A stretch of DNA of 64,000 nucleotides. It comes from Shigella phage pSs-1. Position numbers and translations under genes: made by a program. The notes under the pieces are model-generated. The model ran no database searches. It was given only the letters and a program-made list of their open reading frames with translations, and was not told the DNA's origin. Below are positions 48,088 through 56,113 of this stretch, one piece after another. Each line of letters starts with the position of its first letter. The first letter of the stretch is position 1. Location: sequence record KM501444; one strand, given 5' to 3'.

Positions 48088-48408
48088 TTATAGCGTAATC
48101 CATTCTCGTACTGTCTGAGTTACTACACGTTCACGGGGCTCGACTAGTTCAACAGTCGGAACTGCATAATACCAGTCAGAATGGTAAGAACCTGAGCGAG
48201 ATTCATTTACGGAAACATGTACATTGTGTTTTGGACTAAAATAAACACACTGACGATATTGGCATTTACCATCTTGCACCCAGTCTTCTATTTCAACAGG
48301 TTTAAGATAATCCGAAAAATCGAAATCATAATTTTCTGAAAATGCATCATGGTCTTCGATGATTTCACTCAGAACTGCATCAACATCTAATTTATTTTCA
48401 GTATTCAT
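48088..48408 (-). CDS. hypothetical protein (106 aa)
   Basis: ORF track. Confidence 0.45.
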   Translation of the reverse strand: MNTENKLDVDAVLSEIIEDHDAFSENYDFDFSDYLKPVEIEDWVQDGKCQYRQCVYFSPKHNVHVSVNESRSGSYHSDWYYAVPTVELVEPRERVVTQTVREWITL

Positions 48409-49068: not shown

Positions 49069-49311
49069 TTATTCCTTAATTCCTAGTACTTGTTTAAAAG
49101 TCTCGTCGTAATCAAGACTTTGGCCCGTTTGTTCTTTATGTTTGTATATAATATCACTTACTTCTGATAGCATATTTTTATATGAACGAGTTAAAGCAGA
49201 TTTAAGCACGCTGTATCTATCAGGAAATTTACCATGTTCATTATAATACGCTATTGCTAATTCACGGACTGCCTTTTCAGCAGTCTCCATATATTCTTTA
49301 CGCTTTGTCAT
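49069..49311 (-). CDS. hypothetical protein (80 aa)
   Basis: ORF track. Confidence 0.45.
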
Positions 49312-49615
49312 TTTCTTCTCGGTTAAATCGGTGTTTGCAATGACGGCATTTATAATGAAGAATACTACTCTGCCAATGAATTAATTGAACCTGTTCAGTA
49401 CCGCATTCAGGACAATTAGGAACGTTTTTAGAAGCCCTTTCGCGACGTTCAACCATAGCCATAATAGCATCCCATGCTGGAGGTTTAAAATCTAAATCGT
49501 CACAACCATGAATCTTTCCACGCATTTCCAGATCGTCTTCTTCACCAGCCATAATAATTTTAATTAGACTGGAATTACTTGAAGCTGCAATATCTTCTAA
49601 TAAGCGCTTTTTCAT
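49298..49615 (-). CDS. zinc-ribbon protein (105 aa)
   Basis: CPEC...CRHC ribbon. Confidence 0.45.
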
Positions 49616-50541
49616 TTCAATACCTCAATAGCATTACGTAAACCATTTGCTTTTGCATTAAGAGCTTTTAACGATTTGGTGTGTTCGGCAATCTGGGCTT
49701 CAACTTCAATCAAACGAGCATTGAGATATTCACGTTCTTCGCTCAAGTTATCAATCTTTTCCACTTTAGGCTCTTTTACAACTGTCTTATATGTATTAGG
49801 ATTCTTCAGTTTAATTAGAATGCGTGAACTATATAACATTGAACCATTATCTTCGATTTCGTCATACATTTCTACTACGTCCATGATTTTTAACATCATG
49901 CGGAGTTTATAAGACAACGAACGAATAGTTTTGTTGTGCTTATTAATTTCTCTAGATGTCATGGTTCCGAGATTACGTGAGTAATAATAAGGAACTTGGA
50001 TATTAATTAACACCGATGAACCACCTGGCTTGTGTGTTACTTCATCAGCAATAACCCAATCCTTAACATGAACTGTATTTGTACGGTCATCACCAGCAGT
50101 AAATAGTTTGCGAGCATGCTTAAAAAGCATATTCACTTGGGTATTGAATTGACAAGCAAATTTATCAGCAAATTTAGTTTCAGGAATGGTAGATAACCAA
50201 TCAGCTAAATGGGTCTTTTTAACATCGTTAACAATAGTAAATTCAACCAAATCGGTTATAGATGTCGTAGATTTAATGAAGCTCGGCTTCATAAAGTTTT
50301 TAATGTTATCACGAGCTACAGTAGAAGATAGCATACGAGAACGTTTAAACCATTCAAGCAAATTGCCTAATGAATGAGAATAGGCGTTTTGAGTATCTTT
50401 ACAGATATGATTTTCCTGGCCAACATATTGAAGGAAATCACGAAGAATATTATTGATTACTGCTCTGTGTCCGATCTGATAATTACGGTGTTTAGTAATA
50501 AGACTATCAAAATAATCAATATAATGTTTACGAGTTTTCAT
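49612..50541 (-). CDS. coiled-coil tail family protein, paralog A (309 aa)
   Basis: shares N-terminal MKTR..YI and central lF+KqlL..AsrL...GdD motifs with three downstream ORFs; C-terminal heptad coiled coil. Confidence 0.55.
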   Translation of the reverse strand: MKTRKHYIDYFDSLITKHRNYQIGHRAVINNILRDFLQYVGQENHICKDTQNAYSHSLGNLLEWFKRSRMLSSTVARDNIKNFMKPSFIKSTTSITDLVEFTIVNDVKKTHLADWLSTIPETKFADKFACQFNTQVNMLFKHARKLFTAGDDRTNTVHVKDWVIADEVTHKPGGSSVLINIQVPYYYSRNLGTMTSREINKHNKTIRSLSYKLRMMLKIMDVVEMYDEIEDNGSMLYSSRILIKLKNPNTYKTVVKEPKVEKIDNLSEEREYLNARLIEVEAQIAEHTKSLKALNAKANGLRNAIEVLK

Positions 50542-50593
50542 GTTCTTCTCACTTGGTTAATGATTTATACTCCGAGCCATCCTTGGCTTTAAA

Positions 50594-51595
50594 TTACTTA
50601 ATTAACTGTAAAGCTTGTTCAAGACGATCAAGGCGATTAACAGATTCTTCCCAAATCCTTTTAGCCTGCTCATATTCTTTCTGTGCTTTATTAGAAATTT
50701 CTAAAACTTCTTTATAAGCTTTTTCTAATGCAATAACTTCTGGACGAATTTCTACCGGTTCAGGTGAATCATCAAGATTATCCATTAGTTCCTCAAGGGT
50801 AGTTTCTTCTTTAGGAGTATTCACAATTTCTTCACATTTTTGTTGGTAAATTTCTTTATCAGTCGGTGAGTACGCACACTTTACTTCACGAAGACTAACT
50901 ACAATTTTATATCCTTCCCAACCGCATATATTCTTAAAAGGATAAGTATGAATATTTTCTACTGTTTCCATACAAAGTAATGCGGTCTCTAACTGACGAG
51001 TTATATCGCTAGCAATTGAGAAAAATTTATTAATGTTCTTTTGATTAGCTTCTGGTGTAAAAAATTCATAATTCACAAAAATAGCTGCTTTATTTTTATC
51101 AAGCTCATATTCTTTTATGATAATCATATCAGAAGCCCAAGGATGGATTTGACGATAATCACCATAGCATAATTTAGAAGCTGATTTTAGAATTTGCTTC
51201 TTGAAAAGTCTAAAATTACTAATCCAACGACGAGTAAAAATATTCTCAGGGTCTTCTTTAGCATTAAGATGATAAGAATTAACATCACCGAACCAATTGT
51301 ATCCTACTACATCTTTAGTTCGTTTAATTTCTTTCCCAAATTTACCAAGAATATCTTGATTAACTAAATATGAAAGAAGACGAGACCCTTTAAAGGTTTC
51401 CTTAATATCATCTTTATATTCGCGACTAGAAATTTTATGAACTTCATGAATAAATTTGCTTGAAGAAACAATACTTGCATCAGTATTGTTGAGCCACTGA
51501 TTGATAATAGAAAGAACACTATTCTGACTAGACATAGATTTAACTTTATCATCAATAACGCTATTGAATGATTTGATATATTCGTTACGAGTCAT
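50594..51595 (-). CDS. coiled-coil tail family protein, paralog B (333 aa)
   Basis: ATG 51593-51595 with GAGGAG SD and early promoter; same family. Confidence 0.55.
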   Translation of the reverse strand: MTRNEYIKSFNSVIDDKVKSMSSQNSVLSIINQWLNNTDASIVSSSKFIHEVHKISSREYKDDIKETFKGSRLLSYLVNQDILGKFGKEIKRTKDVVGYNWFGDVNSYHLNAKEDPENIFTRRWISNFRLFKKQILKSASKLCYGDYRQIHPWASDMIIIKEYELDKNKAAIFVNYEFFTPEANQKNINKFFSIASDITRQLETALLCMETVENIHTYPFKNICGWEGYKIVVSLREVKCAYSPTDKEIYQQKCEEIVNTPKEETTLEELMDNLDDSPEPVEIRPEVIALEKAYKEVLEISNKAQKEYEQAKRIWEESVNRLDRLEQALQLIK

Positions 51596-51620
51596 ATTAA
51601 TCTCCTCAGTAGAAAGTAAG

Positions 51621-51653
51621 AACATTATACCACATCCTTGTGGCAAAGTAAAC
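51621..51653 (-). promoter_or_regulatory. T4-type early promoter
   Basis: cattataccac...gtaaac. Confidence 0.55.
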
Positions 51654-52675
51654 TAGTTCAGTGCATTTAGTGCATTGTTCAGTTTAGAACGTTGCTTTGT
51701 CAGATTTTGAACCCTTGACTGAGCTTGTTCTAACACCTTTTCAGCTTCTAGCACTTCATTGGTCGCTTTAACGAGTTCATCATCTACTGCCTTAAGAGAC
51801 TTCTCAATCGCGTCAGCGTGCCATTTTTCTACAGGTTTAAAATTTGAATTTTCAGTAGGAAGAAAACTCACTTTATTAAGTTTACATGCATCTATATTGC
51901 TTGAGCTATACATCCAAAATTTAGGATCGTTTGATGAGTAATTGGATAAATTTAAGTTATCTTGCACTTCCTGCTTTTTCTCTTGCGGGATTTCGTCCTT
52001 TCTCAAAAAATCGTATTTAAATGAAACGATCATATCAAGTTCATATGTTGTTGTGTCTAATTTAAATCGCTCAAAACGAGGTAAAATCTTAGACTGAACA
52101 GCGGCAACAACATCCATATACTTAAATGCTTCTGTCAACTGCGATTTAAGGCATTCGCAAATTGAAAGAGAATTTTTTGTATTAGGTTTAAAGCTAATTC
52201 GTGCAGTTCTGTTATTTTCTTTTAATGGTCTTACTTCCATCTGAAGAGTATAACCATCAAATTTCAGGTTCTTTAAGTTAATGTCAGAACCTTTTAATCG
52301 ACTAGCCGTCGACAAAATTTGCTTTAATTGTTTACGGAATAGAGCAATAAATCTCCATTCAATACGATAATGATTTGGATTAAAAAATCCAGATGATAAA
52401 TCAACCTTACTCTGACCAACGCCTTGAACAAATAGAGGATTTTTATAATCAATAGTTTTACAGAAATCGGTGAGCTGCTCACGAGCCGTCATTTGTGTAA
52501 TATACCCCGCTTTACTAAAATTACTCACCCATTCGCTGCTATTTAGATATTTAAAGTGATGAATAGCACGATTAACTTTATCAGGGTCTAAATTATTTTC
52601 GCACAAAAATGTCATAACATTACGAGTATCGCTGGCAGTACGAACCATATCTTCAATTTGAGAACGAGTTTTCAT
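51653..52675 (-). CDS. coiled-coil tail family protein, paralog C (340 aa)
   Basis: same family; C-terminal LEAEKVLEQAQSRVQNLTKQRSKLNNALNALN. Confidence 0.55.
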   Translation of the reverse strand: MKTRSQIEDMVRTASDTRNVMTFLCENNLDPDKVNRAIHHFKYLNSSEWVSNFSKAGYITQMTAREQLTDFCKTIDYKNPLFVQGVGQSKVDLSSGFFNPNHYRIEWRFIALFRKQLKQILSTASRLKGSDINLKNLKFDGYTLQMEVRPLKENNRTARISFKPNTKNSLSICECLKSQLTEAFKYMDVVAAVQSKILPRFERFKLDTTTYELDMIVSFKYDFLRKDEIPQEKKQEVQDNLNLSNYSSNDPKFWMYSSSNIDACKLNKVSFLPTENSNFKPVEKWHADAIEKSLKAVDDELVKATNEVLEAEKVLEQAQSRVQNLTKQRSKLNNALNALN

Positions 52676-52683
52676 GGTGTTCC

Positions 52684-53589
52684 TTAAGATTTAAGTAAAT
52701 CAACAATTTTAATTAACTTTTCACGCTCAGATTTAGCTTTACTATTCAGTCCAGATAGTCTGAAAATTTCATCATCATATTGTTGAATAGAAATATTCAG
52801 CTCTTCAATCTGTTTATTAAAATAATCAATTTGTTCAGAATGTTTTTCGTTACTACGAACTGGTACAGGTGTCGTAGGCAATTTAGTTGAACTGGATTCA
52901 TCCGGGCGATAAATTAAAATACAACTTGAACCAATAGGGCATTTTGCACCAGATGAATATTCTAATGTTCCAGCTTCTTTTAAAACTTCAAAAGCTAAAC
53001 AGAGATGATGCCCCATATTAACATAATCTGTAGAGCGAGCTCTGATATAATAATCATCGCCACGAATACTAAATTTAAAGCATTTAAGGTCTTCTGTATT
53101 ATTGGTCTTAAAAATCATTTGTTTATCTAGACCTTTAGCTAATCGAGCGCCTAATGCTAATAATCGTCTTTGATTTTCCCATAAATCCGCAATCATTTGA
53201 TCGAATGATAATTTTGGCATCAGTCGACCATAAAGGTCATATCCTTTATTATAATTACGAAGGATTTCACTTGCATTAATACGAGACAATGCTCCAATTT
53301 TATTAAGGGCTTTCATAATGCGATTAGATAAACTCATTCCAGACCCATTTGTTCGCTGCAAATGTTTTTCTAATCCAAATCCAATATCAACTTTAAACTT
53401 ATCTAAAATTTCTGCATGAACATCTCTGTCAATAACATTCAAATCCAAAGTTGGGTTAAATCTATGAAAAAATTTATCTGGCTCTCCACGACGAAATACA
53501 GTCCATTCATTCATCATTTTTTTATTAACTAAAGATTTAATTACTGCATTGACATTATTAATTACTACTGACATATTTTCCTCACTCAA
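52684..53589 (-). CDS. coiled-coil tail family protein, paralog D (301 aa)
   Basis: same family; C-terminal IEELNISIQQYDDEIFRLSGLNSKAKSEREKLIKIVDLLKS. Confidence 0.55.
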   Translation of the reverse strand: MSEENMSVVINNVNAVIKSLVNKKMMNEWTVFRRGEPDKFFHRFNPTLDLNVIDRDVHAEILDKFKVDIGFGLEKHLQRTNGSGMSLSNRIMKALNKIGALSRINASEILRNYNKGYDLYGRLMPKLSFDQMIADLWENQRRLLALGARLAKGLDKQMIFKTNNTEDLKCFKFSIRGDDYYIRARSTDYVNMGHHLCLAFEVLKEAGTLEYSSGAKCPIGSSCILIYRPDESSSTKLPTTPVPVRSNEKHSEQIDYFNKQIEELNISIQQYDDEIFRLSGLNSKAKSEREKLIKIVDLLKS

Positions 53590-54038: not shown

Positions 54039-54566
54039 TTATGCGAGTACCGTCTTTAACCGTTCTTCAAACTTCCGAAGAGTATTTTGGCGTTCAGCTC
54101 TTTGCTTTTTGTAAGTTTCAATACGCTCTGAAATGAGAGAGTATCGTTCATTTACTGATTCTTTCATAAAATCAGGAATTTCACGAGAAGCTTTAATCTC
54201 ATCAAATTTATCAATAACAGCTTGCTCTTCAGCAATTAAGTTATCATACATTAAAATATCTTTCTTGATGAACTCAATATCTTCTTGAGTTACACGAGAT
54301 AATTTAGATGCTTTATCCTTTTTGTACTGTTCGTTAGTATCACGAGACCAGTGTAATGTACGATTTTTATTCGTATTCTTGTAAATTTCTACAATACCAA
54401 TCTCATCAATAATAACGATCCAATTCCAACGGGATTTGTAAATTTGTCCTCCATCAACAGTGATTTCACCTCCGATTGAGATGTCATTAAAGAACTTGCT
54501 TTGTGCCTCAGATTTAAATTTACCATCGTTGTAATTTACCAAGTTGAAAATATCTTTAGCGTTCAT
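54039..54566 (-). CDS. hypothetical protein (175 aa)
   Basis: ORF track; early promoter upstream. Confidence 0.45.
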   Translation of the reverse strand: MNAKDIFNLVNYNDGKFKSEAQSKFFNDISIGGEITVDGGQIYKSRWNWIVIIDEIGIVEIYKNTNKNRTLHWSRDTNEQYKKDKASKLSRVTQEDIEFIKKDILMYDNLIAEEQAVIDKFDEIKASREIPDFMKESVNERYSLISERIETYKKQRAERQNTLRKFEERLKTVLA

Positions 54567-56080: not shown

Positions 56081-56093
56081 TTGAAATAAAAAA

Positions 56094-56111
56094 GGGAGCC
56101 CGAAGGCTCCC
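56094..56111 (-). terminator. UUCG hairpin terminator
   Basis: gggagcc-cgaa-ggctccc followed by UUUUUUAUUU on minus. Confidence 0.55.
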
Positions 56112-56113
56112 TA

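Follow-up and report, generated by a model that had tools for sequence, protein, structure and literature searches.

The best-characterized relative of the genes described here is nrdC.5 of phage T4. A T4 deletion clone does not infect strain ECOR17 unless dsr1 is disrupted, and plasmid-borne ECOR17 dsr1 protects MG1655 from the same clone, infection being restored by expression of T4 nrdC.5 (Srikant, Guegler and Laub, eLife 2022, PMC9391042). In that work only NrdC.5 was tested, and neither its paralogy nor its mechanism was described. Dsr1 is a SIR2-domain defence protein thought to act on nicotinamide adenine dinucleotide (NAD+), and according to a 2026 preprint it recognizes the major capsid protein of phages by means of a TPR sensor that Avs7 also has (PMC12803255). 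Here we analyse a 64,000-nucleotide stretch of DNA from Shigella phage pSs-1 (sequence record KM501444, hereafter the window), in which nrdC.3, nrdC.4, nrdC.5 and nrdC.6 lie consecutively on the minus strand (49612-53574). The genes themselves and the anti-Dsr1 role of T4 NrdC.5 were already known; what appears to be new is that four T4 'hypothetical' genes are united in one Straboviridae-specific superfamily of variable copy number. Through their paralogy with nrdC.5, the genes nrdC.3, nrdC.4 and nrdC.6 therefore become candidate counter-defence genes.

The 340-amino-acid NrdC.5 protein of the window is the orthologue of T4 NrdC.5, with 93% identity over 340 of 340 residues, the same syntenic position and the same Pfam family (DUF7235), and the other three genes of the array are its paralogues. 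The comparison differs between them in that Dsr1 rescue is known for T4 NrdC.5 alone, and NrdC.3, NrdC.4 and NrdC.6 may have other targets. A literature search found no paper on the paralogy of NrdC.3-6, on the mechanism of NrdC.5 or on the function of NrdC.3, NrdC.4 and NrdC.6, and searches on NrdC.5, Dsr1 inhibition and the Pfam accessions returned nothing beyond the 2022 paper.

Two other described systems bear comparison with the array. DSAD1 of an SPbeta-type phage, a protein for which published abstracts describe no enzymatic role, counters DSR2, a SIR2-domain NAD-depleting defence protein activated by phage tail tube protein and inhibited by DSAD1. This would be the best functional analogy for the action of NrdC.5, and it goes no further than analogy: DSAD1 is a Bacillus phage protein, its target is DSR2 and not Dsr1, and it is not known to have tandem paralogues. 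DSAD1 was absent among the Pfam and PDB matches of NrdC.3-6, no direct comparison with DSAD1 having been made. The T-even internal proteins IPI, IPII, IPIII and Bas37_0260 are likewise diverged anti-defence proteins of a polymorphic locus, with different defence targets and one short common module attached to bodies that otherwise differ; this module is an N-terminal capsid-targeting sequence in the internal proteins and the C-terminal helix in NrdC.3-6. The internal proteins, however, are packaged and injected and have only the targeting signal in common, whereas NrdC.3-6 share their whole fold, carry no capsid-targeting signal and lie behind early-promoter-like sites.

Organization of the nrdC.3-nrdC.6 array

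The locus belongs to a Tequatrovirus (T4-like) genome, and the 4.7 kb around the array share 95-98% identity with many T-even phages of Escherichia, Shigella and Yersinia. This 4.7-kb query matched 655 records, 463 of them with query coverage of at least 80%. The genes were named from synteny and from identity to Shigella phage Shfl2 and T4:

49612-50541, minus strand: nrdC.3, 309 amino acids; closest paralogue of nrdC.4.
50594-51595, minus strand: nrdC.4, 333 amino acids; Pfam PF26897 (Phage_T4_Y04OP).
51653-52675, minus strand: nrdC.5, 340 amino acids; Pfam PF23882 (DUF7235).
52684-53574, minus strand: nrdC.6, 296 amino acids from the ATG; Pfam PF26899 (Phage_T4_Y05B); remote superfamily member.

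An initial annotation of this DNA, made from its letters, had described four consecutive minus-strand open reading frames of 309, 333, 340 and 301 amino acids, and these are present at 49612-50541, 50594-51595, 51653-52675 and 52684-53589. The first three lengths hold. The start of nrdC.6 is most likely the ATG at 53574 (296 amino acids) rather than the TTG at 53589 (301 amino acids), because the ATG is preceded by a GAGG Shine-Dalgarno sequence, lies 8 nucleotides past the nrdC.7 stop and agrees with homologues that begin MS..IN. The genes are closely spaced, with 8 nucleotides between nrdC.6 and nrdC.5, 57 before nrdC.4 and 52 before nrdC.3.

The T4 reference record differs in this last gene. 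In NC_000866 (locus L002, 10067-10894) NrdC.6 is annotated with 275 amino acids, matches the window protein (98%) only to residue 259 and is without the normal C-terminal helix, and the T4D annotation of the HIDEN-SEQ study gives 891 nucleotides (296 amino acids). The 275-residue form is either a sequence error or a real truncation.

The four proteins form one superfamily

The common ancestry of NrdC.3, NrdC.4, NrdC.5 and NrdC.6 as one superfamily was confirmed by the convergence of hhalign E values, a profile match of NrdC.6 with its null controls, two bridging proteins and Foldseek comparisons. The closest pair, NrdC.3 and NrdC.4, was joined by BLASTP (E 2e-7, 25% identity across 226 residues) and by hhalign (E 3e-12, probability 97.6%), both proteins are held in phrog_1435, and this was the only pair joined by pairwise BLASTP of the four window proteins. 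The first hhalign runs, made with shallow alignments, gave probabilities of 0.1-8%. A protein search with NrdC.5 returned only sequences at least 77% identical to it, and its alignment was enriched with divergent homologues taken from loci around NrdC.4 homologues; loci without nrdC.3 (L007-L016) encode NrdC.5-like proteins of 297-307 amino acids with 24-30% identity. With the enriched alignment, NrdC.4 and NrdC.5 were matched at E 1e-4 and a probability of 58%, collinearly over some 160 columns and with the coiled coil excluded. In addition, a protein of Klebsiella Marfavirus phages (P0235) bridges three members, matching the hidden Markov models (HMMs) of NrdC.3 (1.7e-5), NrdC.4 (1.9e-7) and NrdC.5 (1.7e-13).

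The position of NrdC.6 was the point at which homology could be doubted, since neither BLASTP nor HMMER profile-sequence searches linked it to the other three proteins, and both Pfam and PHROGs place it in a separate family of its own. It could then be argued that not all four proteins are homologous and that NrdC.6 resembles the others through a coiled-coil tail and a chance motif only. Comparison of the superfamily profile with the NrdC.6 profile, however, gave E 3e-5, a probability of 73% and a score of 43.1 over 152 columns outside the C-terminal helix, against scores of at most 18.9 in null controls (the reversed alignment and 40 column-shuffled alignments). Moreover, the sole family member of Enterobacter phage IME523 matches both the NrdC.6 HMM (1.7e-8) and the NrdC.3/4/5 HMM (2.9e-16), and nrdC.6 occupies the same syntenic slot as the rest of the family. 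Together with the structural evidence given below, these results largely refute the non-homology of NrdC.6, which we regard as very improbable.

NrdC.3, NrdC.4 and NrdC.6 share at most 25% identity with NrdC.5. Pfam distributes the array among three families, PF26897 (NrdC.3 and NrdC.4), PF23882 (NrdC.5) and PF26899 (NrdC.6), and PHROGs likewise recognizes three. The DUF7235 model matched window NrdC.5 over its full length (E 1.2e-119) and gave no match to NrdC.3, NrdC.4 or NrdC.6, which are relatives of NrdC.5 at the superfamily level and stand outside that Pfam family.

Some candidates were rejected in the course of this analysis. A regular expression written by hand to capture the central block described below matched NrdC.6 only, and it was dropped as circular and too strict. 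Acj61p118 and the proteins of 256-257 amino acids that adjoin the single members in Marfa and IME523 were not accepted as family members. A further pair in Acj61, Acj61p077 and Acj61p076 (locus L022, 15204-16322 and 14028-15146), consists of tandemly duplicated genes for hypothetical proteins of 372 amino acids adjoining gene 40, and is unrelated to NrdC.3-6.

Predicted structure, central block and C-terminal helix

AlphaFold2 models were obtained for NrdC.4 and NrdC.6, with predicted local distance difference test (pLDDT) scores of 84.4 and 77.5, respectively. In the NrdC.4 model the helical N-terminal domain is succeeded by an alpha/beta domain, from which a disordered linker (residues 274-284) leads to the C-terminal helix (285-332). 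The two models present their secondary-structure elements in the same order: a helical N-terminal domain, a helix pair with an F..K..L..A.+L..G.D block and a long helix flanked by two beta-hairpins, followed in both by a low-confidence linker and a long C-terminal helix, which in NrdC.6 takes the form of a helix-turn-helix. In NrdC.3 and NrdC.5 the shared core was assigned by alignment only.

Foldseek searches of BFVD with the NrdC.4 model retrieved a Tequatrovirus protein of the size of NrdC.3 (308 amino acids; E 1e-8) and NrdC.6 of phage JS10 (E 1e-5, probability 1.0), and seven further full-length BFVD matches, from Enterobacter, Pectobacterium, Acinetobacter, Yersinia and Serratia T4-like phages, were common to both models. 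The template modelling scores (TM-scores) were only 0.3-0.5, as is to be expected of multi-domain models in which one helix swings freely. The initial annotation had taken the four proteins for paralogues, and alignment, nulls, bridges, predicted topology and Foldseek agree with it.

The central block was aligned in all four proteins, as had been noticed at first sight of the sequences:

50086-50163, minus strand: central block of NrdC.3, KFACQFNTQVNMLFKHARKLFTAGDD, amino acids 127-152, assigned by alignment.
51158-51232, minus strand: central block of NrdC.4, RRWISNFRLFKKQILKSASKLCYGD, amino acids 122-146; model helices 119-130 and 132-140.
52283-52357, minus strand: central block of NrdC.5, WRFIALFRKQLKQILSTASRLKGSD, amino acids 107-131, assigned by alignment.
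53125-53187, minus strand: central block of NrdC.6, DLWENQRRLLALGARLAKGLD, amino acids 130-150; model helices 124-133 and 135-145.

An N-terminal M(K)TR signature, also proposed for all four proteins, was found in three of them and not in NrdC.6. The C-terminal heptad repeat was recovered in every member:

49615-49758, minus strand: C-terminal heptad helix of NrdC.3, amino acids 262-309.
50597-50743, minus strand: C-terminal heptad helix of NrdC.4, amino acids 285-333.
51656-51820, minus strand: C-terminal heptad helix of NrdC.5, amino acids 286-340.
52687-52848, minus strand: C-terminal heptad helices of NrdC.6, amino acids 243-296; two helices in the model, 243-272 and 278-295.

The heptad register is unbroken over the last 48-55 residues of the four proteins, and no more than 27 of 5000 shuffles of the segment concerned reached the hydrophobic occupancy of its a and d positions (0.79-0.94). 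The coiled coil proposed for this region is a prediction from that periodicity.

Pfam and PDB sequence searches and model comparison matched no enzyme family and no solved structure, in agreement with the initial annotation, in which no catalytic motif had been visible. The PDB sequence matches obtained, to caspase-3 (E 0.6) and, over 60 N-terminal residues, to designed helical repeats, were not meaningful. Many database homologues of NrdC.3-6 are labelled 'thioredoxin' (for example in the PYps5T and ECO4 records), a label unsupported by sequence or models: no thioredoxin or glutaredoxin match was found in NrdC.3-6 with Pfam, and the NrdC.4 and NrdC.6 models are not thioredoxin-like. We consider this widespread label to be wrong; it appears to have been carried over from the locus name nrdC.x. 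One database record has seven consecutive genes labelled in this way.

Distribution, copy number and evolution

An exhaustive HMMER search with a joint NrdC.3/4/5 profile against 1.84 billion cluster representatives retrieved 17 clusters only, and the superfamily is confined to T4-like (Straboviridae) phages. The position of the family is constant, between nrdC/nrdC.2 and nrdC.10, in Tequatrovirus, Dhakavirus/Mosigvirus-like loci, Marfavirus, Kanagawavirus and Acj61. As the initial annotation had proposed to check, copy number varies among T4-like phages, from one to four according to genus:

Tequatrovirus: four copies.
Dhakavirus/Mosigvirus-like loci: three copies, without nrdC.3.
Acinetobacter phage Acj61: two copies, adjacent genes, found by Foldseek only.
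Klebsiella phage Marfa and Enterobacter phage IME523: one copy each.

The plasticity of the locus is apparent from several natural variants. Tequatrovirus has two nrdC.3 alleles with a mutual identity of only 61%, and the window carries the Shfl2-type allele (97% identity to Shfl2, 61% to the T4 allele). In one Tequatrovirus locus (L010, 7971-9003) nrdC.4 is split into two overlapping open reading frames. A protein cluster found on contigs of up to 167 kb (P0056) is an out-of-register NrdC.5(146-272)::NrdC.3(129-309) fusion, with its junction at a common VN dipeptide, by which nrdC.4 is deleted. In Shigella phage Sf25, NrdC.6 (P0120, 378 amino acids) has residues 177-259 tandemly duplicated, a segment that takes in the linker and some of the alpha/beta domain.

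The family members also diverge faster than the genes around them. Between Tequatrovirus and the three-copy phages, NrdC.4 keeps 40-52% identity, NrdC.6 43-45% and NrdC.5 20-27%, and the corresponding values for neighbours are 83-87% for nrdC, 57-70% for NrdC.8 and 68-79% for NrdC.10. Within Tequatrovirus, pairwise ratios of non-synonymous to synonymous substitution rates (dN/dS) were 0.07-0.33 for the nrdC.3-6 genes, vs about 0 for nrdC, 0.03-0.08 for nrdC.8 and 0-0.11 for nrdC.10. The four genes are thus fast-evolving, yet under net purifying selection. The description of the array as a 'diversifying' family holds in the former sense and not in that of positive selection.

A single metagenome contig of 803 bp (L017) encodes a protein of 173 amino acids (P0234) in which an unrelated N-terminal portion of about 115 residues precedes a C-terminal stretch of 53 residues that shares 89% identity with the tail of NrdC.5. 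This protein may reflect a module swap or an assembly chimera, and in view of the latter possibility it was given no weight.

An anti-defence neighbourhood

Published defence inhibitors are encoded on both sides of the array:

48088-48408, minus strand: gp49.2, 96% identical to T4 gp49.2, which inhibits OLD (PMC13096335).
49069-49311, minus strand: NrdC.1, 100% identical to T4 NrdC.1, a reported inhibitor of Septu (10.1101/2025.11.20.689424).
54039-54566, minus strand: nrdC.8, 175 amino acids, 98% identical to T4 NrdC.8.

The relevance of the third gene comes from Bas37_0203, an inhibitor of Druantia type III, whose 528-nucleotide gene lies between nrdC.7-like and nrdC.9-like genes in the Bas37 annotation table (10.1101/2025.11.20.689424) and which by position and length is the nrdC.8 orthologue. 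The products of these three genes belong to the same gene run and orientation as NrdC.3-6, and are accessory and defence-inhibiting, but they are unrelated to NrdC.3-6 in sequence and much smaller (80-175 amino acids). The array thus seems to lie within an anti-defence island that extends from gene 49 to nrdC.10.

NrdC.8 was considered as a possible fifth family member. Its C-terminus is a heptad-like helix, in which the hydrophobic a/d occupancy of 0.69 was attained in 42 of 5000 shuffles and the final residues are similar to those of NrdC.3-6; no profile, however, joins NrdC.8 to the NrdC.3-6 family, and it was rejected despite the similarity of the helix.

Proposed role of the array

The data suggest that the tandem paralogues NrdC.3-6 probably neutralize host immune proteins early in infection, acting as non-enzymatic oligomeric binders with a different target for each paralogue. 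We favour this role because the four proteins, one of them the orthologue of the anti-Dsr1 protein of T4, share common ancestry, in accordance with model topology and Foldseek matches, and have anti-defence neighbours; because the genes behave as accessory genes, being non-essential, showing natural variants and ranging from one to four copies between genera; because they diverge faster than their neighbours and are restricted to T4-like phages; and because the array combines heptad C-termini and tight gene spacing with an early-promoter-like site. An anti-defence or host-interaction function was also the suggestion of the initial annotation, and it is strengthened by the published anti-Dsr1 activity of NrdC.5 and the published anti-defence activities of three neighbours. 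The promoter-like site is located as follows:

51624-51652, minus strand: T4-early-type promoter-like site between nrdC.5 and nrdC.4, upstream of the latter, GTTTAC-17-TGgTATAAT; consensus match only.

It is the best of the matches at the array to the consensus of T4 early promoters, and a GAGGAG Shine-Dalgarno sequence lies between it (51652-51624) and the nrdC.4 ATG. The 'early promoters' of the initial annotation correspond to these matches and have no basis beyond the consensus.

According to the proposed mechanism, NrdC.3-6 would be made early in infection as non-enzymatic binding proteins, in which the conserved helical and alpha/beta core would serve as a scaffold and the variable surfaces would recognize a host immune protein. 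The C-terminal coiled coil would drive oligomer formation and so confer avidity for oligomeric defence proteins. In the case of NrdC.5 the target would be Dsr1, perhaps its TPR sensor, with activation by the capsid protein being blocked; NrdC.3, NrdC.4 and NrdC.6 may act alike on other Dsr1 variants or on other defence proteins. The sensor might instead be occupied through imitation of its trigger, the alpha/beta domain mimicking a conserved phage structural protein and engaging the defence sensor without activating it, so that the paralogues would be decoys for different structural-protein sensors. We regard such trigger mimicry as quite unlikely.

Several observations weigh against direct neutralization of immune proteins. 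The sole phenotype in the family is that of NrdC.5 and is genetic in kind, so that the effect on Dsr1 may be indirect. In the HIDEN-SEQ study, in which nrdC.3 to nrdC.6 are non-essential in T4 and Bas37 transposon libraries on laboratory E. coli, the Bas37 orthologues of NrdC.3-6 behave neutrally on K-12 and are not significantly depleted on the clinical isolates CFT073 and CFE299 (10.1101/2025.11.20.689424). Pairwise, gene-wide dN/dS values below 1 give no gene-wide arms-race signature. The oligomeric state and the formation of a coiled coil are predicted from the periodicity of the sequences and from models of the monomers.

Some of these observations would also suit an indirect or non-defence role, for instance in nucleotide or NAD metabolism, in transcription, or in the timing or masking of the capsid protein, with Dsr1 rescue as a side effect and paralogues that need not target immunity. 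The neutrality of the orthologues on the three hosts mentioned is in line with such a role, as is the failure of our literature search to find a published direct interaction between NrdC.5 and Dsr1, and the basic character of three of the four proteins (isoelectric point 9.1-9.5) also suits nucleic-acid binding. On the other hand, nrdC.5 alone rescues the deletion phage on MG1655 carrying only plasmid-borne dsr1, anti-defence genes flank the array on both sides, and Pfam, PDB and model searches revealed no similarity to metabolic or nucleic-acid-binding families. An indirect role is accordingly judged unlikely, and neutralization of host immune proteins is preferred.

A broader form of the preferred role can be put forward tentatively, and it is possible rather than probable: the array may be a modular anti-immune platform of T4-like phages, with one scaffold and one oligomerizing tail, in which the paralogues are each adapted to a pattern-recognition protein of the host that differs from one paralogue to the next, such as proteins with an Avs7/Dsr1-type TPR sensor and other effectors. 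If this were true, the expansion from one to four copies would be a record of successive host immune pressures, a new phage-defence pairing would come to light with each of NrdC.3, NrdC.4 and NrdC.6, and the fold would represent a new class of immune-sensor inhibitor.

Although T4 serves as the reference phage, the majority of its accessory genes are still without assigned function, and three of its 'hypothetical proteins' become testable candidates for counter-defence factors through this analysis. The array lies where four genes have recently been found to block OLD, Septu, Dsr1 and Druantia III, and the nrdC.3-6 genes are carried by hundreds of sequenced Tequatrovirus genomes, many from phages isolated for phage therapy. 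The series of one-, two-, three- and four-copy loci provides material for studying the duplication and specialization of anti-defence genes.

Other features of the region

Downstream of the array, nrdC.2 (window 49298-49615, minus strand) encodes a zinc-ribbon protein that is unusually variable among close Tequatroviruses (98-129 amino acids, 53-92% identity). NrdC.2 is a conserved downstream neighbour of the NrdC.3-6 family, even in Marfavirus. Just upstream of nrdC.10, a perfect 8-bp GC-rich hairpin, AGGGAGCC-TTCG-GGCTCCCT, is located at window 56093-56112 (both strands), with a T-run after it on the minus strand; it is likely an intrinsic terminator separating the nrdC.11 and nrdC.10 transcription units.

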